Source: Candidatus Omnitrophota bacterium (lineage in GTDB: Bacteria; Omnitrophota; Gorgyraeia; JABMRG01). From it: DNA of 64,000 bases. The notes under the pieces were generated by a model that did not search any database, was not told the origin of the DNA, and worked only from the letters and a program-made list of their open reading frames with translations. Every line of letters starts with the position of its first letter. The stretch's first letter is position 1. The translations under genes and the position numbers were made by a program. The DNA lies in assembly GCA_030593065.1 (NCBI GenBank), contig JAUVHV010000001.1, positions 145,965-209,964 of the forward strand. Direction: 5' to 3'. Shown piece after piece: positions 19,364-64,000 of the stretch.

Positions 19364-19428
19364 AATTTATTATACACCGTAGTGTAGTTAGGTGTCAATA
19401 GGTAAAAAACCGTAGCATAATACGGTGT

Positions 19429-19644
19429 ATGCAAAAGAATATACGGTTGCAATTTGCAGAGAAGATTAAGAAGCTACGCAAGAAACTGGGGTATACTCAG
19501 GAAAAGCTTGCTGAGCTGACAAAGATAGACTACAAATATATCCAGCGAATAGAAGGCAAGAATCCACCTGCCGTGAAGATTGATACTATCCAGAGAATTG
19601 CTCAAGCCCTCAAGGTTGACTCATCAAAACTTCTTGACGAATAG
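19429..19644 (+). CDS. XRE-family helix-turn-helix transcriptional regulator (R-M controller-like)
   Basis: 71 aa. LRKKLGYTQEKLAELTKIDYKYIQRIE HTH_3 pattern. Divergent from the nuclease gene. Confidence 0.7.
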   Translation: MQKNIRLQFAEKIKKLRKKLGYTQEKLAELTKIDYKYIQRIEGKNPPAVKIDTIQRIAQALKVDSSKLLDE

Positions 19645-48567: not shown

Positions 48568-49835
48568 ATGAAAAAACTCGTCATACTTATAATCATTATT
48601 ATTTCCACGTTTAATAGTATCCCTCGATTACACTCGGAACGAGCAAGCCAGGGCGATGCCCTGAGGCCCATGGCTACACGTATATTTCCTGAATATAATC
48701 AAATAATAGAACATATCAAGAGAGACCATCGTTATTGGAAAAGAACCGGCGAATCTGCTTTAGGAGAGGTAAGCCAGTTTAAAGTAAGCGTTAGAGAACA
48801 CCCAGGCAATCCTATACTTATTCCTGATTATAAGAATGAGGTTTTTGTATTAAATCCAGGTGCGATAAGAATAGGGGATACATATTATTTAGCTGTACGG
48901 TCATCAACTCGTGATAAGCTATCAAGGATATTTATTGCAACCAGTAAGGACGGTTACAATTTTCAAAGAAAGCCCGGATTCTTTTATGCGATTCCTGGTA
49001 TAGATTCAAATGGTGGCATCGAAGACTCGAGACTTTTAATTGTAAAAGAGTTTCCTAACAGAGTATTTATGCATTTTACCTATTGCCATGATGGTATATT
49101 TGAAATTGCCGAAAGCTCTATTGCTATGCAGGACTTTATAAATATAAACCCTGCAGGGTGGAGCCCTATGAAAAGGCTCTTTCCCGGAAAGAGGGATAAA
49201 GATTTTGTGCTGATACCGCGAATGTTGAATAATAGATACTATGCCTACCACCGGCCTGAATTTGAAAGCGGACAATTAGTTGGACGAGGCATACATCTAG
49301 CTTATACAGATAACCTTATTGACGGCACATGGGAGGACTTGGGCATGGTAATGGCTCCCAGGAAAGATTACTGGATAGGAGCAGGGGTGGTACTAGAGGC
49401 AGAGAATGCCTGGATTTTGATTTATCATGAAGCGCAACAGCTTGCTGATACGGACAAACGCTATGTATGCAAAATTGCTCTAATAGATAAAGAAAATCCG
49501 GCAAATATTCTTTATGCTCCTGAAGAGCCGATACTTGAAAGCAATCCATCTGAGACAGAGATGCTTAAAAAGACAATAGGGCTTGAGTCTTGGGTCCCCA
49601 ATGTTAAATTTATAAATGGCGCTATAGTATTGGGGAAAGAGAGGCTGTGACTGAAGGAAGTGAAATTGTTCTTTATTATGGTCTTAATGATACGGTTGTA
49701 TCTGCTGCAATATTAAAAATTGAGAAAATGCCGGATATTTCAAATGGAAGAAAGGCAGTGCCTAATAAGCCCTTCTCGGGTATAAATTTCGGCCAAAATA
49801 AAACTGTTTTAATAAATATTGACTCTGCTGCCTAA
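48568..49835 (+). pseudogene. GH130-like (DUF377) glycosidase/phosphorylase, apparent frameshift near 49645
   Basis: ORF 48568-49650 has the GNPIL / beta-propeller signature. The overlapping ORF at 49647 continues with EIVLYYGLNDTV (C-terminal GH130 hallmark VLYYGAADT) in another frame. Confidence 0.4.
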
Positions 49836-49989: not shown

Positions 49990-52900
49990 ATGCTATATTT
50001 AAAATTAATACATAGTAAATTTATTTCAATTATACTATTACTTGCTATTAGTGTTACTACGTCTGCCTATGGCAGTACTAACCCCGCGCTTTTTACCAGA
50101 AAATCCCATGCGCAACGTTACTTAAAAAAATCTGGCAATAAATTGCCCCTCGATTTTACCGGTAAAGACTCATCGTCGGCTATAAACATTCCCCGGAGAT
50201 TAGGGGTTGTGGTGGAGCGTTATAATGGTGAAAGTGGTTATACAGTTATACATATTCAGGACTCCCATATCAACCCTACAGCTCAGTTTAATATAGCAAG
50301 CATAATAGAAGAGATTGCCACAAAATACAACACATCTCTTATGTGCTTAGAAGGTGCTTCTGCAGAACTTGATATATCCTTTTATGATAAGTTTCCTGAT
50401 GATGAAGCAAAGCGCAGAATAGCAGGTTTTTTTGTGGAAAGAAGCCTTTTTACGGGTGCTGAGTTCTATAAAATATTACACAAAGCCCAATATTTGAAAA
50501 CTATAGGCGTAGAAGATAAAAAGGCCTATTTAGAACACCTTTTTTACCATAGAAAAAATCGGCTAAGTAGAGAGGTTGTATTAGGATCTCTTAAGGAGCT
50601 TGAAAGAGGCCTAATCAGTTTAAAGAGTAGAGTATATTCCAAAAGTTTAAAAGACTTAAGCGGAAAAAGCTGTCTTTATCATTTGAAGCAGTTTAAGCTG
50701 CCTGAATATCTTAATATATTAGAGAAATATTCTAAAAAAGCAAAGATAGATATCTCTAGATATGAGAACCTTATTAAAATGCTTGCGCTTATGGAAAAAG
50801 AGAAAGAGCTAGATTTTCAAGCAGCGGCAACGGAAAGAGAAGCACTAGTTCTTTATCTTTCAGAATTACTGCCTGCCAAAAAGCTGAGAGAGCTTTCCGC
50901 AATGAGCCTTAATTTTAAACTCAACAAGAGATCGGACATTGAATTCTATACCTATCTTGAACAATTCCTCAATAGCCAGTTGTTGCAAGTTAAAGATGCA
51001 ATACGCGCTATGCGCTACAACCATCTTATTGCTTACATAGATTATCTTAAATTCTCAAAGTCTATCGATTATCTTATGGTTTATGATGAGGCAGAGCGCT
51101 TAGAAGAGGAGGTTTCAAAAGCACTTTGCACAAATTCAACACAACAGAGGCTTGTTGAATACACCAAAGCTGTAAGTATCCTGCTGGATTTTTACGAGTT
51201 GAAGCTTACCAGCGGCAGGTTAGATTACATGGATAGAAATCAGGATTATTTTGATATTCAAAACATAATACAGTTTTTGAAAGAGGCTTGCAATAAATAT
51301 GGTTTGCCTCTTGAAGATGCTCTCCTTGTATCTATAGACAAGATGTTTATTGAAAACACTAAAAATTTTTACGAGATAGCGCTGAAACGGGATATAGCCA
51401 TTACAGAAAATACACTAAAATCTATGAGATGTCAGCGTAAAGACAGGGCCATACTAATAACAGGGGGGTTCCATACCCGGGGCATAACTAATATCTTAAA
51501 AGAGAAGGGTATATCCTATGTTGTAATATGCCCTAACATCGGCTTAATGGATTCAGAAAGGCTTTATTTAGATAGATTAGCAGGCAGGCTGCAGGATGTT
51601 TCAGAGCTAACAGAGCTTTTTAGCCAGACACTAACAGCCCCTCTTGTTACAGGGGATGCTTCAGTAGCAGAAGTAAGCTTTATCGCGCAAGAAGCATTTA
51701 AAATGTGCTGGAATATTTCAAATAATGCGAAAAAACTCAACACCCCAGCTCATAAAGCTGAAGAGATGGTGCGTCAGATTAACAGCCGTAGCATAAAAAT
51801 ATACCCATATGACAAGAAAAACGACGCCTATATGTTAGATAAAGGGGGAGTGTTAAAAGCAATTTATGATTCTGACTATCCCGTAGTTGTTAGGTTTATG
51901 ATAGAGGGTATTTCTGATTATGTTATTTTAGGTTTTAGGGTGGAAGAAGACGGCATATCTGCTTTGTCTACACACTTTCCTGATGACCTGCAGGGTAAAA
52001 GGTTAAATTCGCAAGTTTTCGAAGCCTTAGGCAATGTGATAGAGAAAGGCGCAATACTTAGGGCAAAGATATCTAATTCTATGACCAGGAAGAGATTGTT
52101 TAGTGCTTTTGAAGTAGTAGCTGGTAGTATAAAAAAGAGAGGGGCGGGGGATAATATTGTCGTTGATGAAAATCTTATTGCGGATGCCTTTTCAAAAACA
52201 CTTATGGGTAATCTATTTGCAAGGGCCGGGTTTAGCAATTTCAAACTTATGCTTAAGAGAAATAATGGTAGCTATATGAGGGGCCTTGAGGCCTTGACCA
52301 ATATTTTACTTGCGAGCAGAGACGGAAAAAAGACAGGAGAATTTTGTCTTGAGGCTGTAAAATTATATAGCAGGCAACCCACCCTTCCTCAGCCCCAGGA
52401 TGGCGAAAAGGCCGAGCCTATAAAATCCTCATCCGCGGGCAAGGAGCAGGCCAAAGAAGATATCACCATGGAACGCTTATCAGAAAAGGAGAGAGAGGCT
52501 ATTGCTGACGTTTCAGATAAGGTCTTGGCAGTATATCCAAAATTTAAGATACATAAAAAGGAGCTTAACTACTTTATAATGCTGATAGGCCCAGGCGACT
52601 TCTCAAAGGCATTTGCTAATAATCTTGTGGCAGTTGTCAATGCCCTCAAGACAGTCTTTAGAAATTGGGATGAAGATAAACTCACTGCTCTCATCAAACA
52701 TGTTACCCAAGATGCCTTTACAAAGGCATTTGCTAATAATCCAGCGGCAGTTGCTCATGCTCTCAGGATAATCTTTGCTGACTGGGATAAATACACCATC
52801 TTTATAACTCACATTAATAAAGATGACTTCTCAAAAGCATTTGCTGATAATCCTATAGCAGTTGCTTATGTCCTCAGGACAATTTTTGCTAATTGGGATA

Positions 52901-55900
52901 AATACATTACCTTCATAGCCAATTTTAATAAAGACGTACTCTCAAAGGTGCTTATTGATAATCCACAGGCAGTTGCTTATGCTTTCAGAATAATCTTTGT
53001 TAATGAGGATGAAGATAAGCTTACTGCTCTCATCAAACATGTTACCCAAGCTGCCTTTACAAAGGCATTTGCTGATAATCCAAGGGCAGTTGCTCATGCT
53101 CTCACGATAATCTTTGCTGACTGGGATAAATACACCATCTTTATAACTCACATTAATAAAGATGACTTCTCAAAAGCATTTGCTGATAATCCACAGGCAT
53201 TTGCTGATATTCTCTTGGCAACCTTTGTTGACTGGGATAAATACATTACTTTCATAACTCATGTTACCCAATCCGCTTTCTCAAAGGCACTTGCTGATAA
53301 TCCTGTGGCGGTTACCAATAGTATCGCGAAAATATTTAATAACTGGGATGAATACAATAAGCTTTATAGCCAATACGGTAGGCAACTAAATATATTGCGC
53401 GATTATGCATCTGAGACGGATCAGCAGGATATAACAGATATCTTTATTATTATAAAGATGTTTGATATATTGAAACTCTTGAAAGACTTACCCAAAGAAG
53501 CAGATAGGAGACTCTTAAGAGAACTTCTTGATAAGAAGGGGTTAGAAGGCCTCTATCTTATCTTAAAGTTCTTCTATGAGTTCAATCCTCTCTTTGCTGA
53601 TAAGCACAAACCATCCTTTATAAGGAACTTCTTAGGTATTAACTTTATTAATCAGGAGTTCGGATTCCGTTACGGCCGTAATTACGCCTATATATCTGCA
53701 GGAGAGAACAGGGAACCTGTATATACAATTACCAAGGTCTTCGGTTCAATCCCTTCAGCCAAAGAAGAGTTTAATGGGCTTAAACTGCTTGAGGAATTTG
53801 GCAAACTTACAAAAATCACACTAAACGAAAAATCTACATCCATAACTTACTCTACAACAGAACCAGGCCTGTTTATCATGCCTACTGAGTTTATGGCTTA
53901 TGCCTCAAAACAAGAGAGAATGAAGATACTCATATCATTATTAAAAGAGTCGTTGCTTCAGATATACTCACTTGCACATAAAGGATACGCTCACACCAGC
54001 TTAACTTCTCTGAGTCATGGCATAAGGGACGATAACACGCCCAATGAGTGGATACCATATAGAGGAGGAGAGATAACCGATGTCCAAGAAGGCTTAAAAC
54101 ACCTTAATTTTCGTCCTGGTATAGGTTTAGTGGATGCGGAACATATATTTTATTCAAGGGAACTGGAACATTTAGACAGCAGCATTCTTAATAAAGATGT
54201 AGCAGGTTCAGTCTTTGAGCTTTTGTTAGGCCTTTGTTACGGAGCTATAGTACAAGGCTTCTCAACAGATGAGATAGTATCCTCGTTTACCTCAATAGAA
54301 TTAGATATAGATGCTTTACCAGGTGAACTTCAGCACAAACAACAGATTTTTAAAGGTTCTGAAAAGCATCTCAGAAGGATAATCAATGATATCATAACTG
54401 ACCATATACCGCATCAGAGAGACACCAACGCTCTTCTTCCATGGCTTGAAGAAAATCTACCCGGCCTTCTTACTGTAACAGCCAGCGAAAATAGGGTTAT
54501 CCTGCCGGAACTTATTAATGTGTTGGATTATGCCCTTACAAAATCCTCATCCGCGGGCAAGGAAAAGGTCAAAGAAGAGATTATCATAGAAGGCTTATTG
54601 GAAAAGGAGAGAGCCCAGAGGATTTCAGGGCTTTTAGGTGAATTAGCCTCTATAAATAGCATGCAGGAGGTACTGCCGCTTAAATGGATGGAGACAATAT
54701 CTTCCTTTGATATTATTGAGTTTTTTAAAAATATTAGGGGTATAGAATTAGAGGCAGAAAACCTGCTAATGGCAAAACTTTTATGGCATATTGTATGCCA
54801 CACACTCGGGATAGAAGGCAGGCCGCTCAAGCCATTTTATGAGTTGGTGATACTGGATATAAGTGAAGAGAGCATAGCAGGACATTCTGCTGAATTTTCT
54901 TACTATTTAAGGCTTATGATTGAAGAAAAAATGGAAAAAGAGATAAAAGTTGAGATTGAGAAAATGCTTAAAGAAAAAAAGGTGAAAAAAAGAGAAAGCT
55001 TGATAGAAGAGTGGGATAAGGCTGTCGATGGTTTATTAGAAGAATATATTAATAACATAACTCTGCTTTTGAAAGATATAGAGGTTGAATTTAAGAGACA
55101 GGATTTATTTAAAGGGATCGAAGGAGCAATGGAACATTTTAGAGAGCGCTTTAACTATGTTTCAATAAAGCATTCTTCCGCGGGCAGAGAAACAAGGGGT
55201 AAGAAAAATAAACCTGTTGCTGATTTTACGCTAAGAATAACAAAAGAGATGATTCAGGCGGTTATGGATGGCAGTGAGTTTAGAAGCGCAAAAAACGGGA
55301 AGGATTATGAAATTAAGGCTGCTGTGGAAGAAGACTGGCTTGTTATATGGGTAAAAGAGGGTGGACAGCCCGACGAACTTAATAGAGACGAACATTCTTA
55401 TATCGAACTCGACTTAAAATTCACGGAAAATAAAAATAAAACCGAGATCCTTATTGACAGGGAAAGCATTAAAGAACCGGACAGCGGTATATTGACCAAT
55501 ATCCTGGATTATATTATTCCTTATTTTAATGAAATTACTTATGTTTCAACCAACCAATGCCCGCAGATAATAGCCGGAGCTGAAAGGACAATCGAGAATA
55601 TATTGAGAAGATCCGGCAGGGGATTTAAAACTGTTCAAAATAATTTTGGCGGGGTTTTTTATATCAACAAGCCGAAACCATTTAATCCGCATCTTAAGAA
55701 AAGCGAAAAAGAGCACCTCTCCGCCATAAAGCTTTCTTCCGCGGGAGAAGGTGGGGTTGCCCACGATGTCCATAAAGACGGCTCTCTTTCAATGGATAGG
55801 AGACAATTTTTGAAACAGTTGGTGGGAATCCCGGCCTTCTTAACTGTGCTTGGAACCAATAAGAGAGAGGCCTCAGCGCAGGGAAATATATTTGAAGATC

Positions 55901-58851
55901 CCCGCGATTTAATTCTTGATTTTGGCCAAGCGATAGACAGCACTGTTCTTGAAAAATATATTTCTGTGATTAAGGAACAAGGGCTTTTAGAGTTTAGCAG
56001 TGTTATTCAAAACGATTCTGATACAATGATTATTGTAAAGCTGGGGGAAAATAAGGTTGATGCCGAGGTAGTTGCCGGGAGGCTAAACAAGGCGCTATCA
56101 GGCAAAATTAGTTTTGCTAAAAAGTTTAAGTGTGTAAAGAGCAGCATTATATGGGAAGAGACTAAGACCTATAAAGAGATAGAGAATTTTGTGAATAGAG
56201 TTGCCCGTATTTCAGACTCATTGGGTATGGGTAGGGTGAATAGGGATAATCTCAGAACTTTGCTGGAAGGAGTTACCTATGTAGAGAGTAAGTACCTTCA
56301 TTGGGAGCGCAGATTTGGCAAGATTAAACCAATAGAGTCATATACAGGCGCGATAGGCGCGACTCAGCTTGTAAAAAGTAAAGCCGTAAAACATATTGCT
56401 GAACTCGTATTTAAGCATAAGGATGGCCTGATAAAATACAGTAGTATTATCTCAGAGCTGAAAAGAGTTTTGGAAGAAAAGAATCCAGAGGAGAATTATC
56501 TGTCCGCTTATTTTGAAGCAGGAGATGACACCGTTCTGCAAAGATACGCCGTAGAGAAATTAAGGAGAAAGATACTTGCTAACCCTTTATTAAAAGGGGT
56601 TAATCTATATTACGCGCTTTCATTATGGTTAATACTGGTTGAAAACAAAAAAATTTCCACTACGTTAAAAATAGATAGAAAGATAATAGAGCAGATAGCC
56701 AATATAGCGCAATCCGACAGCAATGTCATCTCAGGAAAGGGCGCTTATAAACCTAAGAATTTACATGAAGCAGAATGCCGATGCGGGCAGGATCTTTTAA
56801 GGGCAGAGGTTATTTTCAGGATGCTGGGCGAGGAGGTTATCAAAGATATTGCCATAAAGCATAAAACCAACAGCAAAAGATTTGAGGTGTTATTTAACTA
56901 TATGAAGGTAAAGGTATTCAATGATAAATCATATAACCAGAAGGTTGGATATGTATATCTTTTCTATTTGTGGGACAGGGCCCGCAGGCTGCAGTTAAAA
57001 AAAAGAGAGCAAGGTTATGCTTTTACAGAAGAACTGCCTGAGTATTTTGAATTTAATTCTCGTAGTTTTGATGAGAGATTAGCGGCTGCTGCTGCTTATA
57101 ACTCAGGCTGGAGCACAGTTAGCAAGGCGTTAAAGGGTTTTGGCGCAGAGAAAGATAAAGATACAATCCCCCGCTGGATTAAGAATATGATAGGGCCAAA
57201 CCGCCGAAATCCCAGAGAACCGATTAACTATCTGCGGACATATTTAGAATATATACTCCACTACAAGAGTGTTTTAGTTGATAAGGATTACAATTTAATG
57301 TGCGCTTTAATTGAAGAACGTTATAATCGTTTGCGATATGTGGCCACTAAGAAAGGGCCACGCCTTATTGAATATAGTAAAATCATAACTTCAGACGGGC
57401 AAAAACGATATACTGAATCAGAAAGAAGCAAGGATGATTTATTTAATTATAAGCTGGCTTCTTTACTAGCATCATTGCTCGGCAGCGATTATGTGGATAG
57501 CTATATTATCAGTTGGGGGATGCCAGGCTGGGAAGATAATATTTTAAGCTCTACAGCGCCAACCTTTAAATGGCTGGCAAAACGCATGTATAATGAAGAG
57601 AGTGTTTATCGTGAAAAAGGAGAGCAGGTATTGAATTATTTCAGGGATAACAAAAAGCAATATGGTAAATCTTTAGCAGCGTTAGAAAATTCAATAAGTG
57701 CCCTGACAAAGCACAAAGAGCCGTGGATAGTTTTGCAGAAAAAGATTAAAGCAGAAGCTAAAAGACAAAAAATCAGGGGGTATCTGGTTTGGGGCTTCAA
57801 GTACGCGACGCCAGTTTTTTTGGCAGGGCTTATTCCCGCGGCGCTTGGGTACATAATTTACAGGCGTCTCAAGCGTGAAAAAGCTTCTAAAGTGGGAGAA
57901 GCCGTAAAGACGCCTAAGCCGAAAAAAAGACAGGTTATATACAAACCTCCGGCTTTATATAAAAGCAAGACAACAGGAAAAGTGTATCTTGGAAAAGCTT
58001 TTGTTTCAGACAAAGAACAGAAATACACTGTTGAGAAAAGTGAAAAAAAGCACCCTCCCATTATGAAGTCTTCTTCTAGCGGTGAAAACAGAAACGAAAT
58101 TATAACAGAAATGCCTATTATTAAGCAGGCAAGCATATCTGGCCAGCAGCTTTCCGCGCAGGCCCTGGAATTAGAGAAGTTATGTGTCAGCATGTTTAAT
58201 TTTCCTTATGATCTTCAATTTGGCTATAGCCCATATCGCTATGGGATTATAATTGATGAGGCAGTGTTACGGAATGAAGAAAAGCGGATAATTGAATTTT
58301 TGGCATCTCAGAAAACCTCAACCGGCAAGGCTAAATTTATTATTCTTATTAATACAAAAGATGCAAAAGAGAGTATGATTGATAAATGGGGTTTACTGCA
58401 TGAGAATATATTGAGTGTAGATAAATTTTTTAAGCAGAGAGGTGTTGACCAATCATGGTTAGGTTCAGAACAGGCTAAGGTTATACAAGCGGCAAGACTG
58501 CTTAAGAATAGGATAAGCCAGGGCCAGCCTATAGGAATTATCGCGGGGCCGTCTGTGGACATAGAAAAGATGGCGCATAACATGCAAAGGGAGAATGTAA
58601 AAGGAGTATTTATATCCTCACAACAACCGGCTGCCGCGCAAATAGATATAAGTGAAACTTCGATAATTGCTAATTTTATGTTTGAAGCTCTTTTAGCTGA
58701 TATTCTGCTTAAGCTGAAATCCTATAACCCTGCCAAAAAATACACGATACAGGAACTTATTGAGATTCTTCCGCCAATAATAAGCATAGAATTTATGGAG
58801 AAGATAGAACTTCTTAAAGCCGCGACAGAAGCTATCTCTCAGGCTGCTTAA
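49990..58851 (+). CDS. Giant secreted/membrane-associated multidomain protein (2953 aa), function unknown
   Basis: Sec signal peptide. Tandem ~38-aa repeats (aa ~870-1130). Five K-S-S-A-G linker motifs. Internal Tat-like signal (MDRRQFLK...ASAQ) at aa ~1935. TM helix near aa 2600. Confidence 0.6.
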   Translation: MLYLKLIHSKFISIILLLAISVTTSAYGSTNPALFTRKSHAQRYLKKSGNKLPLDFTGKDSSSAINIPRRLGVVVERYNGESGYTVIHIQDSHINPTAQFNIASIIEEIATKYNTSLMCLEGASAELDISFYDKFPDDEAKRRIAGFFVERSLFTGAEFYKILHKAQYLKTIGVEDKKAYLEHLFYHRKNRLSREVVLGSLKELERGLISLKSRVYSKSLKDLSGKSCLYHLKQFKLPEYLNILEKYSKKAKIDISRYENLIKMLALMEKEKELDFQAAATEREALVLYLSELLPAKKLRELSAMSLNFKLNKRSDIEFYTYLEQFLNSQLLQVKDAIRAMRYNHLIAYIDYLKFSKSIDYLMVYDEAERLEEEVSKALCTNSTQQRLVEYTKAVSILLDFYELKLTSGRLDYMDRNQDYFDIQNIIQFLKEACNKYGLPLEDALLVSIDKMFIENTKNFYEIALKRDIAITENTLKSMRCQRKDRAILITGGFHTRGITNILKEKGISYVVICPNIGLMDSERLYLDRLAGRLQDVSELTELFSQTLTAPLVTGDASVAEVSFIAQEAFKMCWNISNNAKKLNTPAHKAEEMVRQINSRSIKIYPYDKKNDAYMLDKGGVLKAIYDSDYPVVVRFMIEGISDYVILGFRVEEDGISALSTHFPDDLQGKRLNSQVFEALGNVIEKGAILRAKISNSMTRKRLFSAFEVVAGSIKKRGAGDNIVVDENLIADAFSKTLMGNLFARAGFSNFKLMLKRNNGSYMRGLEALTNILLASRDGKKTGEFCLEAVKLYSRQPTLPQPQDGEKAEPIKSSSAGKEQAKEDITMERLSEKEREAIADVSDKVLAVYPKFKIHKKELNYFIMLIGPGDFSKAFANNLVAVVNALKTVFRNWDEDKLTALIKHVTQDAFTKAFANNPAAVAHALRIIFADWDKYTIFITHINKDDFSKAFADNPIAVAYVLRTIFANWDKYITFIANFNKDVLSKVLIDNPQAVAYAFRIIFVNEDEDKLTALIKHVTQAAFTKAFADNPRAVAHALTIIFADWDKYTIFITHINKDDFSKAFADNPQAFADILLATFVDWDKYITFITHVTQSAFSKALADNPVAVTNSIAKIFNNWDEYNKLYSQYGRQLNILRDYASETDQQDITDIFIIIKMFDILKLLKDLPKEADRRLLRELLDKKGLEGLYLILKFFYEFNPLFADKHKPSFIRNFLGINFINQEFGFRYGRNYAYISAGENREPVYTITKVFGSIPSAKEEFNGLKLLEEFGKLTKITLNEKSTSITYSTTEPGLFIMPTEFMAYASKQERMKILISLLKESLLQIYSLAHKGYAHTSLTSLSHGIRDDNTPNEWIPYRGGEITDVQEGLKHLNFRPGIGLVDAEHIFYSRELEHLDSSILNKDVAGSVFELLLGLCYGAIVQGFSTDEIVSSFTSIELDIDALPGELQHKQQIFKGSEKHLRRIINDIITDHIPHQRDTNALLPWLEENLPGLLTVTASENRVILPELINVLDYALTKSSSAGKEKVKEEIIIEGLLEKERAQRISGLLGELASINSMQEVLPLKWMETISSFDIIEFFKNIRGIELEAENLLMAKLLWHIVCHTLGIEGRPLKPFYELVILDISEESIAGHSAEFSYYLRLMIEEKMEKEIKVEIEKMLKEKKVKKRESLIEEWDKAVDGLLEEYINNITLLLKDIEVEFKRQDLFKGIEGAMEHFRERFNYVSIKHSSAGRETRGKKNKPVADFTLRITKEMIQAVMDGSEFRSAKNGKDYEIKAAVEEDWLVIWVKEGGQPDELNRDEHSYIELDLKFTENKNKTEILIDRESIKEPDSGILTNILDYIIPYFNEITYVSTNQCPQIIAGAERTIENILRRSGRGFKTVQNNFGGVFYINKPKPFNPHLKKSEKEHLSAIKLSSAGEGGVAHDVHKDGSLSMDRRQFLKQLVGIPAFLTVLGTNKREASAQGNIFEDPRDLILDFGQAIDSTVLEKYISVIKEQGLLEFSSVIQNDSDTMIIVKLGENKVDAEVVAGRLNKALSGKISFAKKFKCVKSSIIWEETKTYKEIENFVNRVARISDSLGMGRVNRDNLRTLLEGVTYVESKYLHWERRFGKIKPIESYTGAIGATQLVKSKAVKHIAELVFKHKDGLIKYSSIISELKRVLEEKNPEENYLSAYFEAGDDTVLQRYAVEKLRRKILANPLLKGVNLYYALSLWLILVENKKISTTLKIDRKIIEQIANIAQSDSNVISGKGAYKPKNLHEAECRCGQDLLRAEVIFRMLGEEVIKDIAIKHKTNSKRFEVLFNYMKVKVFNDKSYNQKVGYVYLFYLWDRARRLQLKKREQGYAFTEELPEYFEFNSRSFDERLAAAAAYNSGWSTVSKALKGFGAEKDKDTIPRWIKNMIGPNRRNPREPINYLRTYLEYILHYKSVLVDKDYNLMCALIEERYNRLRYVATKKGPRLIEYSKIITSDGQKRYTESERSKDDLFNYKLASLLASLLGSDYVDSYIISWGMPGWEDNILSSTAPTFKWLAKRMYNEESVYREKGEQVLNYFRDNKKQYGKSLAALENSISALTKHKEPWIVLQKKIKAEAKRQKIRGYLVWGFKYATPVFLAGLIPAALGYIIYRRLKREKASKVGEAVKTPKPKKRQVIYKPPALYKSKTTGKVYLGKAFVSDKEQKYTVEKSEKKHPPIMKSSSSGENRNEIITEMPIIKQASISGQQLSAQALELEKLCVSMFNFPYDLQFGYSPYRYGIIIDEAVLRNEEKRIIEFLASQKTSTGKAKFIILINTKDAKESMIDKWGLLHENILSVDKFFKQRGVDQSWLGSEQAKVIQAARLLKNRISQGQPIGIIAGPSVDIEKMAHNMQRENVKGVFISSQQPAAAQIDISETSIIANFMFEALLADILLKLKSYNPAKKYTIQELIEILPPIISIEFMEKIELLKAATEAISQAA
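52596..53380 (+). repeat. Coding tandem repeats (~114-117 nt unit, 7 copies) with a 339-nt higher-order duplication
   Basis: Repeating unit (D/A)FSKAFA(D/N)NP.AVA.ALR.IFA.WDKY(T/I)(I/T)FI.H(I/V)(N/T)(K/Q). 52678-52870 and 53017-53209 are near-identical. Mirrored by duplicated antisense ORFs. Confidence 0.8.
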
Positions 58852-59081: not shown

Positions 59082-60305
59082 ATGGTAGTTAGGCAAACAT
59101 TATTCAGAGACCAGGTCTTATCAGATCGCGAAAGGAAAAATTTGGCTATTCTGGATGTTATCAGAAAGAGTGGACCGGTTACAAGAACAGAGATATCGAA
59201 GGTTACAAAGCTTAATATTGTGACTGTGTCAAATTATGTAAACAACTATATTGACAAGAACCTGATTATAGAGAAAGGGTTTGATGTCTCAACAGGTGGC
59301 AGAAAGCCTACCCTGGTTGAACTGAATGCTAAGATGGGTAATGTTATAGGTATTGATATCGGCCCTGTTAATATGGTCGCGGTTATTACTGATCTGACAA
59401 ATACAGTTATAGGAAAAACAAAAAGGCTTCGCCCTGACGGACCTATGAGTGAAGTCATAACTAGTTCCATTGAAATGGTTTATGAAATAATGGAGAAATC
59501 AAAGGTTGATAAAAATAAGATAAAGGGTGTTGGCCTCGGTGTTTCCGGTGTGATTGATTCCATAGCAGGAACAGTAAGGGATACAGATCTTACTAGAGGA
59601 AGAACAACAGGAAGCTATACTTCTGTTAAGTCTCTTGTACAGAAGGAGTTTAATATTCCTACGTTTGTGGGTAACGATGCTACTGTGGCAGCATTTGGGG
59701 AAAAGAGATTAGGTTTAGAGCAGGAGATAGATGATATGCTCTATGTCTACTCTGACGTAGGTTGTGGTATCATAATAAAAGGAGAGATATATTGCGGAGC
59801 AGGTGGAAGCGCGGGTGAGATGCAGCTTACAGCAGATAATCCAGAACTGCCTTTGCAGGGTAAAGACCCATCATATTTGCGGCCCTGGGGAGTTGACCTG
59901 GGTATAACTCAGGAAGCGCACCAGATACTTTCAAAAGAGAAGGCCGATTCTAAAATAATGGATCTTGCTGGAGATGACTTGGATAATATTACACCTGATA
60001 TTATTATAGAGGCTGCTAAGGCTAAGGACAAGATAGCTATGGAGATTATTGAACGTGCAGGCGCGAACTTAGGTATTAGAATAGCCTATCTTGTAAATCT
60101 TTTTAATCCAGAAGTAGTGGTAATCGGGGGAGGCATAGAACAGGCAGGAGAACTGCTTCTTGGGCCTGTAAGAAAAACAGTAAGAAATCTTGCTTTTGAA
60201 GAACCGGCAAATACAGTTAAAATAGTGCCTTCAAGACTTGGTGACAGCGCTGTAGCATTAGGCGCGGCAGCGCTTGTTTTGAGAGAGATTTTTGCGCAGA
60301 TCTAA
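59082..60305 (+). CDS. ROK family transcriptional regulator
   Basis: N-terminal winged HTH (ILDVIRKSGPVTRTEISKVTKLNIVTVSNYV). ROK sugar-kinase-like domain with CGAGG and glycine-rich ATPase-fold motifs. Confidence 0.75.
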   Translation: MVVRQTLFRDQVLSDRERKNLAILDVIRKSGPVTRTEISKVTKLNIVTVSNYVNNYIDKNLIIEKGFDVSTGGRKPTLVELNAKMGNVIGIDIGPVNMVAVITDLTNTVIGKTKRLRPDGPMSEVITSSIEMVYEIMEKSKVDKNKIKGVGLGVSGVIDSIAGTVRDTDLTRGRTTGSYTSVKSLVQKEFNIPTFVGNDATVAAFGEKRLGLEQEIDDMLYVYSDVGCGIIIKGEIYCGAGGSAGEMQLTADNPELPLQGKDPSYLRPWGVDLGITQEAHQILSKEKADSKIMDLAGDDLDNITPDIIIEAAKAKDKIAMEIIERAGANLGIRIAYLVNLFNPEVVVIGGGIEQAGELLLGPVRKTVRNLAFEEPANTVKIVPSRLGDSAVALGAAALVLREIFAQI

Positions 60306-60321
60306 TATATAACCGTATCAT

Positions 60322-60368
60322 AGATATGAGGCTAACCGTATCATTATGAATAGCCTCATATTGTTTTG
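60322..60368 (+). terminator. Rho-independent terminator after the ROK gene
   Basis: Stem ATATGAGGCTA / TAGCCTCATAT (11 bp) enclosing an AACCGTATCA motif, followed by TGTTTTGC. Confidence 0.45.
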
Positions 60369-60407
60369 CTAGCCTGAAATATTTCTTTAAATTTACATAA
60401 ATATACA

Positions 60408-60436
60408 TTGACAGTAACCGTATCATTTGTTAAAGT
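60408..60436 (+). promoter_or_regulatory. Promoter TTGACA-17-TAAAGT for the AMIN-TolC gene, overlapped by AACCGTATCA operator-like motifs
   Basis: TTGACA 60408-60413. Spacer contains GTAACCGTATCAT. -10-like TAAAGT 60431-60436 with upstream TGT. Inverted partner ATGATACGGTTAC at 60449-60462. Confidence 0.45.
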
Positions 60437-60496
60437 TAAATTAAGCTTAATGATACGGTTACTTAATTTGTAGGTAGTACTAATATGTAAGGCAAA

Positions 60497-63025
60497 ATGA
60501 AAATGATGCGGTGGGCGTTTTTCTTTATTTTTTTCTCTATATCTGCGCTGTTTATATGCAGTTTTGATACGGTTTTAGCACAACCATATGAAACCGTATC
60601 ACCCTATATATTGGCTGATTTACAATATGAGCAATATCCTGGTTTTTCCCGTATCATGGTTGCATCAAATGAAAAGATAGCTTTTGTCTCTTATGAACTC
60701 CAAAACCCTTATAGGATTGTAATAGATCTTATAGGGGTCTCTTTTTGTGAACTACAGGAGTATATTGAATATGAAGAAGGCCTTGTTAAATCGATTGAGA
60801 TAATAGAGACACCTTATGTAAAACGCTTACCAGGCCTTGATGAGTACTTTTACGCAGTAGACTATATAATTATTACGCCACGCTCTAAGCTTTCCTTTAC
60901 TGTATCATCATCAGAGGATGAAAAGGTAATAGTAGTGGATATTGGTGATCAATCAGAAGATAGTGTAGATACAAAACCGGAAGAAGAAGTAAGCCCTGTT
61001 AAAAAGGATCCTATTGGCCAAGAGCTTACAGCAGTGCCAAAGCCTGAATCATCGGTTATAAAAGAGAATATAATCGGTTATATCAATTTTGAAACTTTAG
61101 ATGACGCTTCTTTGATTATCATTATATCCAATAACGAGGTTGTATATAAAATAGAAAGGAACCATTATCCTGATTTTAATATAGTATTAATACCTCAGGA
61201 TCCGGTATTCACGGATCTGGAAGAGTATGCGGAACTTGATACAGGGTATTTGAAATCCGTAAGGATTGTAAAAGATACCATAGCGCCTAAACCAGAATCG
61301 CTTGATAATTATTATTATCCTATAAAATATATAGTAATAGAGCCGAACGTTGACCTGCCTTTTGATTTTTATTCGAATAATGACGGAACCATATCTATTT
61401 TAGAGATATACTACCCTGATATTGATAAAAGAAAAAAAGAGGCCATAGTTGAGAAAAAAGAAGTTGTAGCTGATGTTGATATGGAAAAAGAGGCGGAATT
61501 GTTTGCGCAGGATGTCAGAATGAGCCTGCTTAAACAATTTAAGGAAGAGATAAAGAAAGAAAGCCTGTTGAGTAAAGAAAAAGTTGCGGAGCTTAAAAAA
61601 GAAGAACTTGAAAAGAGGAGAAAAGAGATAAGCAAAAAGGCAGAGACTATTGGCAGAGAGCTCTTAAAAGACCTTATTATTACAGGAAAGGGCATGTTGA
61701 GCCTCAAGAGATCACAGGATATTGCCATTGAGAACAATCTACAGGCTAAGATCTTAAAGGAAGAGGTAAAGCTTACAATGCTGAAAAAGAGGGATGCATT
61801 CAGGTCCCTATTCCCTAATGTGAAGCTCAAGGCATCACATACGGTCGGAGATGTTATGGAAGATATTGCCTTTACTGAAGAACAGTATGGCGTAGAAGGA
61901 GAACAGGTTCTTTATCAGGGCGGCAGGCTAATGAATGCATACAAACAGAGTAAGGTGAATGTCGCTCTTTCAGAAGCCAGGTGCAAGAAGATAGTGAATG
62001 ACCTGAATTTTAAGGTTGCGGAGGCATATTATAATATTGTGACAGCGGTAATGAATATAAGATTGCAGAAAGAGCTTTTTGAACAGGCAGAGGTAATTGT
62101 TGAATTGGCAGATAAGAGGTATGAGGCGGGTTTAAGTACTAATCTTGAGATACTCAATGTAAAATCGCGTTATAACCAGATACAATTTCAGCTTGCTACG
62201 GCAGAAAGGGATTTGGCATTGGCAAGGTTTAAGCTTAAGCAGGTAATAGGCCTTGATATTAGTGAACAGGATATAGATCTTTCCGAAGTCGATACAGAAC
62301 TTCCATTTAAGATTGTTGATATCAATCTGGATGAGTGTTTAAAAGCAGCGTCAAATAATCAGCCTGATATAGTGGTCAATAAGCTGCTCGTTGAATCTAA
62401 TGACTATGGAGAAAAGATTGCCCAGGGAAAAGAAGGGTTTAGTGTAGATTTGACAGGATTTTATGGCAGAGGGGATTCTTATTATGATACAGAACCAAAA
62501 AATTTGGATAATAACTGGAATGTAGGCCTTAAGGTGAGTAAGCCTTTCTGGTTTGCTACACCGTCGTATTCATTTACAAGAGATAAGACCAGCATGAAAG
62601 TCGGAGATACTGACAGAACAGGTTCAACTGTAAATTCAGGCGAAATAGCTATACTTGATAAGAACGCGCTTGCCGTGAGATCAGAGATTAAAGAGGCAAA
62701 GATTAATAAGCAGAAAGCTGAAAATGAATTGATAGAGACAAGGCGGCAGGCAGCTCTGGAGATAAAAGAGGCGTATTATAATTACCAGGAGTCTATTTTG
62801 CAGGTAAAAAACACCCTGGAAAAGGTGCGTTTTCATAAAGAGGCTACAAAGGTTGCAATGGCACAGGCCTCACTAAATGAAGCGCTCCAGTCACAATTAC
62901 TGGAGGCCATGATACAGCTTGTTGATGAAAAGTCAGTTTACATAAAGGCGCTTTCTGATTACAGCCTTGCGATAGTAAAAATTAATAAAGCAATAGGTAT
63001 CAAAGATTATTTTAATATTGATTAA
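60497..63025 (+). CDS. Outer membrane efflux protein (TolC family) fused to N-terminal tandem AMIN-like domains
   Basis: Signal peptide. Two repeated beta-rich modules (NPYRIVIDLIGV / HYPDFNIVLIPQD), a Glu/Lys-rich linker, and a C-terminal ~430 aa with the OEP/TolC double-repeat pattern. Confidence 0.6.
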   Translation: MKMMRWAFFFIFFSISALFICSFDTVLAQPYETVSPYILADLQYEQYPGFSRIMVASNEKIAFVSYELQNPYRIVIDLIGVSFCELQEYIEYEEGLVKSIEIIETPYVKRLPGLDEYFYAVDYIIITPRSKLSFTVSSSEDEKVIVVDIGDQSEDSVDTKPEEEVSPVKKDPIGQELTAVPKPESSVIKENIIGYINFETLDDASLIIIISNNEVVYKIERNHYPDFNIVLIPQDPVFTDLEEYAELDTGYLKSVRIVKDTIAPKPESLDNYYYPIKYIVIEPNVDLPFDFYSNNDGTISILEIYYPDIDKRKKEAIVEKKEVVADVDMEKEAELFAQDVRMSLLKQFKEEIKKESLLSKEKVAELKKEELEKRRKEISKKAETIGRELLKDLIITGKGMLSLKRSQDIAIENNLQAKILKEEVKLTMLKKRDAFRSLFPNVKLKASHTVGDVMEDIAFTEEQYGVEGEQVLYQGGRLMNAYKQSKVNVALSEARCKKIVNDLNFKVAEAYYNIVTAVMNIRLQKELFEQAEVIVELADKRYEAGLSTNLEILNVKSRYNQIQFQLATAERDLALARFKLKQVIGLDISEQDIDLSEVDTELPFKIVDINLDECLKAASNNQPDIVVNKLLVESNDYGEKIAQGKEGFSVDLTGFYGRGDSYYDTEPKNLDNNWNVGLKVSKPFWFATPSYSFTRDKTSMKVGDTDRTGSTVNSGEIAILDKNALAVRSEIKEAKINKQKAENELIETRRQAALEIKEAYYNYQESILQVKNTLEKVRFHKEATKVAMAQASLNEALQSQLLEAMIQLVDEKSVYIKALSDYSLAIVKINKAIGIKDYFNID

Positions 63026-63051: not shown

Positions 63052-64000
63052 ATGAGTGCTTTTAGATTCAGGTTCTGGAAAAAGAGATTAAAATTAAAGC
63101 CCGCTGTATTTATACTGCTGATTTTTGTATTCGCGGCAGCGCTTCTTTTTACCCTGGGCCCGAAATATGCGCCTGAGTTTATGGATAAGATAGGCGCTAC
63201 AAGGATTATTGATAAAATACCTTTTTTAAGGCATGAGCCTGAAGAGGAATTTGTAATTCCGGAGGAAGAAGTGGAAGATACGTTTGTAACAGTCAGAACG
63301 TATCGTACTATGAGAGGGGATTTTGTCGATATTTTACCGGGTATGGGTACAATAAAAGGTGACAGAGAAGTAGAACTCAGGTTTTCTGTAAATGGTATAA
63401 TCGACTCTATCAACTTTTTCGAAGGTGATTTATTAAGAAAGGGTGATATTGTCGCAACTCTTGACCAGAAAGACGCGCTATTGAAACTCGAGTATTCGAA
63501 AAGTAAGCATAAGACCCAGGAGATAGCTGTAAAAGGCGCAAAGAAGAAGCTTGAGATACACCAGACGCTTTTCAAAGACGGTATAATAATAAAACCCAAG
63601 TTAGATGAAGTGCAATTTGAATATGAGAGCACCAAATCGCAGACAAAATCGAGCCAGAAAGAGGTAGAGTTTGCCCTGGCAGAGCTGGATAAGACATACC
63701 TCTATTCTCCGATAGACTCTGTAATGGGTACACGGAATGTAGAAGTCGGTGAGTTCATAACCTCTAATGTAAAGATAGCATCTTTGTATGAGACCTCCAC
63801 TGTAATAGCGGAGATAGGCATTATCGAGAAGGATATAAACAGGATTGCGCTTGGACAGAAAACAACAATAACTGTTGATACATATCCCGGCGTGGAATTT
63901 GAGGGGCAGATAGAGAACATAGCGCCTATAATAGAAGGAAAATCAAGGACATTGACCGTTAAGATAAGAATAAAGAATAATAATCCAAGAGGAACGCTCT
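63052..64000 (+). CDS. Efflux transporter periplasmic adaptor (HlyD/membrane-fusion family), 3'-partial at window edge
   Basis: Open + strand frame from ATG 63052 (RBS AAGGAG 63038-63043) to the window end, missing from the ORF track. N-terminal TM, coiled-coil and beta-barrel pattern of MFP adaptors. Confidence 0.6.
   Translation, partial: MSAFRFRFWKKRLKLKPAVFILLIFVFAAALLFTLGPKYAPEFMDKIGATRIIDKIPFLRHEPEEEFVIPEEEVEDTFVTVRTYRTMRGDFVDILPGMGTIKGDREVELRFSVNGIIDSINFFEGDLLRKGDIVATLDQKDALLKLEYSKSKHKTQEIAVKGAKKKLEIHQTLFKDGIIIKPKLDEVQFEYESTKSQTKSSQKEVEFALAELDKTYLYSPIDSVMGTRNVEVGEFITSNVKIASLYETSTVIAEIGIIEKDINRIALGQKTTITVDTYPGVEFEGQIENIAPIIEGKSRTLTVKIRIKNNNPRGTL

Follow-up and report, generated by a model that had tools for sequence, protein, structure and literature searches.

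What acts on the cluster of short repeats around the start of an AMIN-TolC gene, directly downstream of a ROK-family regulator gene, is the question raised by this 64,000-nucleotide stretch of Omnitrophota DNA (hereafter the window). Omnitrophota are uncultured, very small and probably host-dependent bacteria with record-size genes, and to our knowledge hardly anything has been learned about how they regulate their genes. The preliminary description had interpreted the repeats as a cooperative operator array on an efflux operon, plausibly bound by the adjacent ROK repressor. Its gene calls were correct: the genes encode a ROK regulator with an N-terminal winged helix-turn-helix (wHTH), a TolC channel with AMIN and OEP domains, and a membrane-fusion adaptor. 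The genes and signals around the array are:

59082–60305, forward strand: ROK-family regulator gene, 407 aa (Pfam ROK, 4.7e-39; HTH_24 for the N-terminal winged HTH)
60324–60368, forward strand: intrinsic terminator of the ROK gene (stem of 11–12 bp, 60324–60334 / 60351–60361, then TTGTTTT)
60408–60436, forward strand: predicted sigma-70-type promoter of the AMIN-TolC operon (TTGACA-17-TAAAGT, TG before the -10; 10 of 12 consensus matches in a consensus scan)
60497–63025, forward strand: AMIN-TolC outer-membrane channel gene, 842 aa, first gene of the operon (Pfam OEP, 3.3e-41; AMIN, 5.8e-5)
63052–64000, forward strand: membrane-fusion (HlyD/RND-adaptor) gene, cut by the window end (Pfam families assigned on the identical contig L001)

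Against NCBIfam, the ROK protein is NagC/Mlc-like, far below the equivalog cut-offs. In relatives, the adaptor gene is followed by an RND::linker::wHTH gene and then by a second RND gene (in locus L002, HlyD_D23, then ACR_tran plus HTH_24).

Six exact copies of AACCGTATCA lie within 291 bp (60311–60601), where 0.07 would be expected per whole window. The entire 64 kb holds seven exact copies against the same expectation of 0.07, and a count of seven was reached in none of 100 shuffles. Of the seven array copies first claimed, six are exact, and the seventh (60648–60656) is CCCGTATCA, a 9-mer with one mismatch. Two start positions needed correction (60565 in place of 60566, and 60592 in place of 60591), while the other exact copies stand as reported; a one-mismatch copy, TGATGCGGT at 60504–60512, had been absent from that list. 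The sites are:

A1, 60310–60321, forward strand: TAACCGTATCAT (exact AACCGTATCA at 60311–60320), starting 5 bp past the ROK stop codon
A2, 60333–60344, forward strand: TAACCGTATCAT (exact AACCGTATCA at 60334–60343), in the left arm and loop of the ROK terminator hairpin
P1, 60415–60426, forward strand: TAACCGTATCAT (exact AACCGTATCA at 60416–60425), in the promoter spacer
P2, 60450–60461, reverse strand: reads ATGATACGGTTA on the forward strand (exact at 60451–60460), about +7 to +18 from the inferred transcript start
S, 60504–60512, reverse strand: TGATGCGGT, one mismatch, covering codons 3–6 (M-M-R-W) of the TolC gene
C1, 60565–60574, reverse strand: TGATACGGTT, in signal-peptide codons D-T-V
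C2, 60592–60601, forward strand: AACCGTATCA, in codons (E)-T-V-S directly after the signal peptide
C3, 60648–60656, forward strand: CCCGTATCA, a one-mismatch 9-mer and the weakest member of the array
49688–49697, reverse strand: lone exact copy about 300 bp upstream of a giant gene of 2953 aa (49990–58851), of uncertain membership

The palindromic pairs noted earlier are real and longer than the 10 bp given for them. P1 and P2 form a perfect 15-bp inverted repeat (arms 60413–60427 and 60449–60463, 21 nt apart), and C1 and C2 form an 11-bp inverted repeat (arms 60565–60575 and 60591–60601). Same-strand copies in the window lie 23 bp apart, without a 10–11-bp tandem period. Outside 60312–60899, 15 instances of the 9-mer with at most one mismatch are spread over 63 kb, a rate of about 0.24 per kb, and the computed chance rate is about 0.21 per kb. 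A one-mismatch copy at 49446 lies close to the lone copy at 49688, which falls in an apparent coding stretch.

Several sites coincide with transcription signals. The third copy does sit, as had been proposed, in the 17-bp spacer of TTGACA(60408)-N17-TAAAGT(60436), and on this predicted promoter P1 lies between the -35 and -10 elements and P2 at about +7 to +18, positions suited to promoter occlusion. Relatives keep TTGACA and a -10 element at the matching place; the P1 position is shared with L002, L004, L006, L009 and L172, and the P1–P2 spacing of 34–36 bp is kept in seven loci. The ROK terminator (RNA fold of -21.5 kcal/mol, z = -3.9) carries its site in a hairpin layout that is repeated in L002, L004, L005 and L009.

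The copies inside the coding sequence are informative at the codon level. GAT ACG GTT and ACC GTA TCA are invariant at synonymous positions, while adjacent conserved codons vary, and the synonymous positions of C1 are unchanged across the window, L002, L009 and L004. Site S is exact, as TGATACGGT, in L002 and L009. C3 was found in the window and in the identical contig L001, and relatives do not conserve it. Coding copies span different peptides and frames (TVS, DTV, MIRW, KRII and PYH). In some ROK orthologues, the VTVS of the ROK recognition helix is encoded as GTAACCGTATCA.

The array was compared across 42 non-redundant Omnitrophota loci of 34–63% GC, 28 with an adjacent ROK gene and 14 without, the latter meaning that no ROK gene occurs in the 0.5–6.7 kb of upstream DNA covered. 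Around the AMIN-TolC start, sites of the form aACCGTATCAt reach 11–24 times the density of the other parts of these loci. Between -450 and +350 of the TolC start, the 9-mer with at most one mismatch reaches 5.0 per kb in the ROK-adjacent loci and 3.6 per kb in the loci without adjacent ROK, against 0.21–0.33 per kb in the remaining DNA of those loci. At least two sites occur at the TolC start in 26/28 and 13/14 loci, respectively, and nine of the first 13 related loci have sites between ROK and TolC. Besides positions next to or within a near-consensus promoter, the sites occupy the start codon and signal-peptide codons. Many lineages have a site, in one orientation or the other, at +1 to +10 of the start codon, and lineages other than that of the window place a tandem pair upstream of TTGACA-17-TATACT, with a gap from 1–3 bp to about 20 bp, or a site over the -10. 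The motif logo, aACCGTATCAt, is asymmetric and non-palindromic, and neighbouring copies are most often direct tandem repeats at an 11-bp period (12 cases). Head-to-tail repeats with a 10–11-bp period occur in L006, L166, L168, L174, L185, L195, L201, L243 and others, and inverted pairs lie 27–36 bp apart. Only the core of 9–11 bp is conserved; the flanks are not. In a high-GC lineage the motif is ACCGTCTCA. Enrichment over flanking DNA together with frozen synonymous positions is the pattern of a phylogenetic footprint, and a cis-regulatory DNA array around the AMIN-TolC start is well supported by these sequence comparisons. The earlier proposal of a cooperative operator array on an efflux operon holds up in its positional conservation, its overlap with a near-consensus promoter and its kept synonymous positions.

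The operon itself encodes a candidate binder. In L002, a single ORF (15611–19555) carries ACR_tran (residues 5–1051) and HTH_24 (residues 1251–1296). This RND-wHTH tail is conserved in more than 40 loci and is present in every relative with a visible RND gene end; it comprises a long, disordered, low-complexity linker of 100–400 aa followed by a winged helix-turn-helix of about 70 aa. DNA-binding and membrane modules are joined in one polypeptide in relatives, and the window stops in the adaptor gene. The C-terminus of RND proteins is cytoplasmic according to the AcrB topology. The wHTH recognition helix, S[VI]PTA[AS]RDLK, is invariant across genomes of 37% to 63% GC, as is the motif core. In the high-GC lineage with ACCGTCTCA, the wHTH, which has the residues LTGAS/AKGR, differs just ahead of the recognition helix and in the wing. 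This co-variation is a single evolutionary event, and several of the sites lie on the start codon, where the basic start of the signal peptide may contribute. Comparison of the wHTH (model pLDDT 64) with solved structures and folds gave only generic winged-helix matches (IclR, MarR, ArsR, ROK N-domain and Lrp/DtxR) and no close solved relative, and therefore the specificity of the domain is not readable from homology. A word-indexed protein search with the 88-aa tail returned one fragment. Distant wHTH paralogues in other protein contexts (P0008 and P0009) have no motif clusters in their loci. The literature searched contained no description of an RND-wHTH fusion; the Omnitrophota giant-gene papers within it mention neither the operon, the RND-HTH fusion nor the motif, and a further full-text search gave the same result.

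We consider that the repeats are a conserved array of double-stranded-DNA binding sites with the consensus aACCGTATCAt, which marks an AMIN-TolC / membrane-fusion / RND / RND efflux operon at its promoter and 5' end across an Omnitrophota clade. The binder would most likely be the wHTH of about 70 aa at the C-terminus of the operon's first RND pump, expected in the cytoplasm, and the pump would thereby control its own operon. An asymmetric site of 9–11 bp with an 11-bp tandem period is a typical target of single winged helices such as those of PhoB and OmpR. Since P1 fills the -35/-10 spacer and its inverted partner P2 lies at about +7 to +18, wHTH domains bound to both would block RNA polymerase. 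The upstream sites A1 and A2 and the downstream sites S, C1 and C2 may raise local occupancy or serve as roadblocks. Binding of the wHTH to the sites, the sign of regulation, and the presence of the tail on the RND gene of this genome, beyond the window end, are what we infer. That the pump-tethered wHTH binds the array and autoregulates the operon has, in our judgement, about an even chance of being correct.

An unlinked factor, for example an OmpR/PhoB-type response regulator, may instead bind the sites, leaving both ROK and the pump wHTH as bystanders. All loci were collected through ROK or through the wHTH (the wHTH set by an exhaustive HMMER search), which leaves no wHTH-free operon of this kind for comparison, and the association of the motif with the wHTH is therefore inseparable from its association with the operon; the same pattern would arise from any unlinked factor that is conserved among these genomes. 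Tandem direct repeats of 10–12 bp abutting the -35 are the classic layout of OmpR/PhoB-type winged helices. In addition, further clusters of sites lie outside the operon, both upstream of giant genes and within them, which suggests a regulon rather than pure autoregulation. However, no such regulator appears in any of about 60 informative loci, with 10–20 kb inspected per genome, whereas the operon invariably encodes the wHTH. In the locus parts whose domains were inspected, no gene for an OmpR/PhoB-type response regulator was found; the receiver proteins seen, a stand-alone receiver (L006) and a receiver-GGDEF protein (L166), have no DNA-binding output. The promoters are near-consensus (TTGACA-17-TATACT with TG) and do not look activator-dependent. 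We regard an unlinked factor as possible, with a chance of somewhat less than one in four.

The adjacent ROK repressor is the natural candidate by position, and its dimers or tetramers would bind the array and link distant sites, so that the efflux operon answers a sugar signal. The protein has a bona fide N-terminal wHTH. The gene order ROK-TolC is kept in 28/28 ROK-bearing loci, down to about 45–50% ROK identity, and this synteny argues for some functional tie between ROK and the operon. NagC-type ROK proteins loop DNA between distant operators, and the inverted pairs of the window lineage, at their fixed spacing of 34–36 bp, could be bridged by a ROK oligomer. On the other hand, the array persists in 13/14 loci without ROK in the 0.5–6.7 kb upstream, where a ROK gene elsewhere in the genome is possible, and L162, L166, L168, L174, L183, L189 and the L193 group combine the array and the RND-wHTH with no ROK in the DNA covered. 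In loci with an extra gene between ROK and TolC, the sites remain with TolC. Known ROK operators are AT-rich, two-fold-symmetric and about 18–23 bp long; the motif here is non-palindromic and most often head-to-tail at 11 bp, with neither a two-fold symmetry of about 18–23 bp nor a consistent co-occurrence of sites and ROK genes across the loci covered. The ROK promoter has its own conserved element, AAAGAGTTTTTAAA, which occurs a single time in each of 13 loci, and does not carry ACCGTATCA. The ROK recognition helix is identical in L007 (ROK 86% identical) and nearly so in L010, yet the former has only degenerate sites and the latter none; the RND gene is off-contig in both, and these two loci count against the pump-wHTH reading as well. 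Since the array follows the operon and not the neighbouring ROK gene, ROK is the less likely binder, and the RND-fused wHTH is a better candidate than the repressor first proposed. ROK may still be a binder or co-regulator of the array, and its role as the main binder seems to us unlikely, at about one chance in six.

A variant of the pump-tethered reading concerns the giant genes. Relatives carry tandem sites 500–670 bp upstream of giant genes, and the arrays reach 0.3–2 kb into coding DNA and recur beside giant genes in several lineages, and the length of the linker would allow it to reach the nucleoid. Beyond a role as repressor, the pump wHTH might act as a physical DNA anchor that holds the operon and giant-gene loci at the inner-membrane RND/TolC machine, so that transcription, translation and membrane insertion or export of the operon products and the multi-thousand-residue products would take place at the export site. 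We consider this a long shot.

The repeats might also act in RNA, with the P1–P2 and C1–C2 hairpins or alternative pairings controlling termination or translation of the TolC mRNA. The perfect 15-bp and 11-bp inverted repeats and the position of A2 within the ROK terminator are in line with this, and folding of the 5' mRNA is somewhat more stable than that of shuffled sequences (z = -2.4). However, P1 lies between the -35 and -10 and hence outside the transcript of the conserved promoter, in most lineages all sites point the same way, as direct repeats upstream of the -35, and are unable to pair, and the orientation of the sites relative to the gene switches between lineages. There is no Rfam match to the repeats either: at gathering scores, the search returned only three tRNAs in the window and no match in L006. 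An RNA function is therefore very improbable.

Least probable of all is chance, a coding by-product (a recurrent TVS/DTV peptide), a small dispersed repeat or a mobile-element remnant: three or four copies do lie within coding sequence, as do the VTVS-derived GTAACCGTATCA of some ROK orthologues and apparently the lone copy at 49688, but four window copies are non-coding, the coding copies use several frames and both orientations, the core alone is conserved without its flanks, density off the hot spots is at chance level, and scans of viral contigs for motif pairs stay within a few-fold of rough chance estimates, with no ROK or TolC homologues. Those viral-contig scans gave 115 direct and 35 inverted stretches against a rough chance of about 40 and about 12, which is uninformative, and the 16 matches with the 25-nt gap of P1–P2 belong to one unrelated phage sequence family.

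Four further candidates were rejected. An ECF-sigma promoter (AAC...CGT) is inconsistent with AAC-to-CGT distances of 11, 15, 19 and 23 bp, which are not the constant 16–17 bp. An extended -10 (TGnTAC.GT) fits only L008, L013, L176 and L177, where the site overlaps the -10. A DNA-uptake or other genome-wide dispersed sequence conflicts with the chance-level density outside the hot spots in the window and the 42 loci. The small basic Cys4 protein adjoining TolC in L010 and L168 is missing from the window and the other loci and is not a general regulator.

The analysis yields a well-defined motif, aACCGTATCAt, with a target operon conserved clade-wide, and a candidate regulator of unusual type, an RND efflux pump with its own DNA-binding domain. 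Should the tail bind the array, production of the transporter, and possibly of the giant proteins encoded nearby, would be under direct control of the transporter itself, which would be a new architecture among membrane-tethered regulators. Assigning the array to ROK by adjacency was natural, is probably wrong and is corrected here.

Among known systems, AcrR-acrAB, MexR-mexAB-oprM and TtgR-type regulation resemble the locus in promoter-overlapping sites, a TolC/adaptor/RND operon and a regulator in the same locus, and negative control is probably shared as well. There, a soluble TetR- or MarR-family dimer encoded by a separate, usually divergent gene binds one or two palindromic operators, whereas the array has 6–8 asymmetric sites over about 350 bp, extending into the coding region, and its candidate binder is a domain of the pump. 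ROK systems (NagC, Mlc, XylR; Lmo0178-operator complex, PDB 5f7q) share a wHTH ROK gene directly upstream and, in NagC-type systems, several spaced operators; the array differs in being asymmetric, GC-containing, often head-to-tail and persistent without an adjacent ROK gene. Pho-box and OmpR-type sites are alike in their asymmetric unit of 9–11 bp, repeated head-to-tail with a period of 10–12 bp upstream of, and often abutting, the -35, as in most related lineages, and the binder here is presumably a winged helix too. However, no receiver domain or two-component partner was seen here, the promoters are near-consensus and not -35-less, and the window array has spacings of 23, 35 and 27 bp and is partly inverted. 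On the proposed reading, the pump also resembles ToxR, TcpP and CadC, in which an inner-membrane-tethered winged helix shares one polypeptide with a membrane/periplasmic module. In ToxR-like proteins, an OmpR-type domain at the N-terminus is combined with a single transmembrane helix and a periplasmic sensor, whereas the RND-wHTH domain lies C-terminal to a 12-helix RND transporter on a very long disordered linker and belongs to an HTH_24/DeoR-like subfamily related to SLFN_AlbA_2 protein tails.

The AMIN-TolC efflux operon begins within a cluster of the short word AACCGTATCA, whose copies share the extended consensus TAACCGTATCAT. Seven exact copies occur in the window against 0.07 expected, and no shuffled sequence reached seven; one of them (49688‒49697, minus strand) is isolated from the cluster. 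The cluster and its surroundings are arranged as follows.

49990‒58851, giant gene, 2953 aa
59082‒60305, ROK gene, 407 aa, ROK with an N-terminal winged HTH (wHTH)
60310‒60321, site A1, exact copy at 60311 (+), directly 3′ of the ROK stop codon
60333‒60344, site A2, exact copy at 60334 (+), within the ROK terminator hairpin (left arm and loop)
60408‒60436, predicted near-consensus promoter, TTGACA-17-TAAAGT with TG upstream
60415‒60426, site P1, exact copy at 60416 (+), in the spacer of this promoter
60450‒60461, site P2, exact copy at 60451 (−), approximately +7 to +18 relative to the inferred transcription start
60497‒63025, AMIN + OEP (TolC) gene, 842 aa
60504‒60512, site S, one-mismatch 9-mer TGATGCGGT, over TolC codons 3‒6
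60565‒60574, site C1, exact copy at 60565 (−)
60592‒60601, site C2, exact copy at 60592 (+)
60648‒60656, site C3, one-mismatch 9-mer CCCGTATCA
63052 onward, membrane-fusion adaptor gene, incomplete at the end of the window

S, C1, and C2 fall on the TolC start codon or signal-peptide codons (M-M-R-W, D-T-V, and T-V-S). The sequence TTGTTTT comes after the ROK terminator hairpin, whose folding energy is −21.5 kcal/mol (z = −3.9). Outside the cluster, 9-mers with at most one mismatch gave 15 matches in 63 kb, which is the chance density. Since the exact copies are so far in excess of expectation, the repeat cluster reported in the preliminary description is real; its copy list, which counted C3 as the seventh copy, was accurate except that two coordinates were off by one and S was missed. 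The palindromic pairs it described were also found, as a perfect 15-bp inverted repeat (60413‒60427 and 60449‒60463, 21 nt between the arms) and an 11-bp inverted repeat (60565‒60575 and 60591‒60601).

The window derives from an Omnitrophota MAG, and relatives of its ROK protein at 46‒95% identity were found in 12 genome loci, where TolC follows ROK wherever the downstream DNA is covered. The motif lies between the two genes in the related loci L002, L004, L005, L006, L008, L009, L011, and L013, and also in L001, whose assembly matches the window exactly over the genes they share. The P1/P2 pair keeps its promoter position and a 34‒36-bp spacing in relatives. Within TolC, GAT ACG GTT and ACC GTA TCA are invariant at synonymous positions in the window, L002, L009, and L004 while adjoining conserved residues vary, and coding copies in other lineages use different frames and the opposite orientation (KRII, PYH); the constraint therefore acts on the nucleotide sequence, not the peptide. 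The motif logo is aACCGTATCAt. Neighboring copies most frequently form a head-to-tail tandem with an 11-bp period, which in most lineages lies upstream of TTGACA-17-TATACT at a distance of 1‒3 bp to about 20 bp.

In relatives, the adaptor gene is followed by an RND pump gene and then a second RND pump gene. The first pump (1180‒1500 aa) consists of an AcrB-type body (ACR_tran, residues 5‒1051 in L002), a variable, low-complexity linker of 100‒400 aa that is charged or proline-rich, and a conserved winged HTH of ~70 aa (HTH_24, 1e-5; HTH_DeoR), hereafter the tail. Across 11 diverse sequences, neither the recognition helix S[VI]PTA[AS]RDLK nor the wing GP..GR.Y varies. Structure prediction gave a generic winged helix, and no close solved structure for the tail was found. 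The fusion (Pfam ACR_tran + HTH_24) occurs in L002 (15611‒19555), L004, L006, L008, L009, L013, L162, L166, L168, and most of L170‒L249, and the next gene is in every case a second RND gene that lacks the tail. The window stops short of its RND gene; the tail is present in its closest relatives, L002 and L009 (ROK 95% identical). Searching 1.84 billion representatives exhaustively returned just 225 tail relatives (E ≤ 1e-3). Among the matches listed, at least eight placed the tail at the C-terminus of 1180‒1510-aa proteins, and all four of these looked up were AcrB-type pumps. A literature search found no published description of the RND-wHTH fusion. A small, very basic Cys4 protein of about 100‒120 aa adjoins TolC in two distant lineages, L010 (5330‒5692) and L168 (2783‒3073, minus strand), with 48‒52% identity between them; its gene is absent in the window and the other loci compared.

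Judged from sequence comparison, the chances that the tail binds the array are about even. It is favored because it alone among the DNA-binding domains found belongs to the operon in every lineage, because its invariance parallels that of the motif among operons of this kind, all of which carry the tail where the RND gene is seen, and because a 9‒11-bp asymmetric site and helical-turn tandems suit single winged-helix domains. In a high-GC lineage (L193, L198, L202, L213, L214, L221), ACCGTCTCA replaces ACCGTATCA at the TolC 5′ ends, and the tail has LTGAS instead of F.IS just before the recognition helix and an altered wing. This co-variation is weak evidence, because it represents one evolutionary event. 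An unlinked factor is a doubtful alternative as the binder. The comparisons covered 10‒20 kb of each genome.

Binding by the adjacent ROK repressor to a cooperative operator array, as initially proposed, seems less probable still. A second set of loci, collected through the tail and not through ROK, includes TolC/adaptor/RND-wHTH/RND operons without ROK in the upstream DNA examined: L162/L181/L182 (58‒60% GC), L166 (48%), L168 (37%), L174/L183/L189 (35%), and the L193 group (53‒63%). Motif clusters are present at the TolC 5′ end in all of them, and sites remain at TolC where another gene intervenes between it and ROK.

Motif sites per kb in 42 non-redundant loci with a visible TolC start (calculated chance rate about 0.2 per kb)
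Region; ROK adjacent (28 loci); no ROK adjacent (14 loci)
−450 to +350 of TolC start; 5.0; 3.6
Remainder of the same loci; 0.21; 0.33
Loci with at least two sites; 26/28; 13/14

The ROK promoter (TTGACA-18-TATACT, window 59005‒59055) carries its own conserved element directly after the −10 in 13 window-lineage loci, AAAGAGTTTTTAAA (window 59042‒59055), as part of the imperfect AT-rich palindrome TTTAAAAGAGTTTTTAAA, with a single copy per locus in a constant position. This element could be an operator for ROK autoregulation or the conserved start of the 5′ UTR. In these 13 loci, AAAGAGTTTTTAAA was not found near TolC, nor ACCGTATCA in the ROK promoter. L007, whose sites are degenerate, has an identical ROK recognition helix, and L010, which lacks the sites, has a nearly identical one. 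By eye, residues about 235‒260 of the window ROK appear to lack the CxCGxxGC Cys-rich zinc motif and preceding histidine typical of ROK proteins, with AGEMQL in place of the usual AGEIGH.

A role of the array in RNA is unlikely, since the transcript begins downstream of P1, the repeats in most lineages all point the same way and lie upstream of the −35, and site orientation flips between lineages. We consider it highly probable that the array is bound by protein as double-stranded DNA, at the efflux-operon promoter and 5′ end. If the tail is the binder, a winged helix tethered to the pump would occupy these sites, and three such domains would hang from each AcrB-type trimer. The tail would then repress its own operon; such negative autoregulation is favored by the near-consensus sequence of the promoters and by the position of the sites, which lie within or abut them.

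Giant-protein genes adjoin the efflux operon in many lineages (window 49990‒58851; L002 154‒7986; L009 38‒6715; L162 1‒6143; L166 from 19628, L177 from 13798, and L188 from 14196), and one called product has 32,219 aa. A second hot spot closely follows the stop codon of the second RND gene: a tandem pair 500‒670 bp upstream of the giant-protein gene in L166, L177, and L188. The window has one exact site (49688‒49697) and one one-mismatch site (49446‒49454) at 300‒545 bp upstream of the giant-gene start. Both are in the apparent 3′ end of the preceding gene, which has a stop at 49650 and an apparent continuation in another frame, possibly a frameshift. In-frame motif arrays lie in the first 1‒2 kb of several large genes: in L178 (17036‒18419), the tripeptide DTV recurs six times across about 460 residues that are otherwise unrelated in sequence, and the copies in L168 (1870‒2119) read ETVS, QTVS, KTVS, and ETVS. 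The DNA word seems imposed on the coding sequence of these genes.

In L166, a long leader separates a consensus promoter (TTGACA at about 19303) from the giant-gene start at 19628; this leader includes a GC-rich segment (19330‒19460) that appears to be structured. An MshEN-PilZ gene in L006 is preceded by a 1.7-kb ORF-free stretch (6250‒7970) that has three motif pairs in tandem (6285/6296, 6909/6920, and 7649/7660) among other internal repeats. Its segment 6305‒6560 folds far better than shuffled sequences (z = −4.8), had no match in Rfam, and is possibly a structured RNA of unknown type.

Precedents exist for operator arrays, for efflux operons with a locally encoded regulator, and for winged-helix regulators tethered to the membrane. 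To our knowledge, an RND transporter that itself carries a DNA-binding domain, together with a clade-wide, putatively cognate site array that extends into coding DNA and also lies beside giant genes, is a combination undescribed among such systems.
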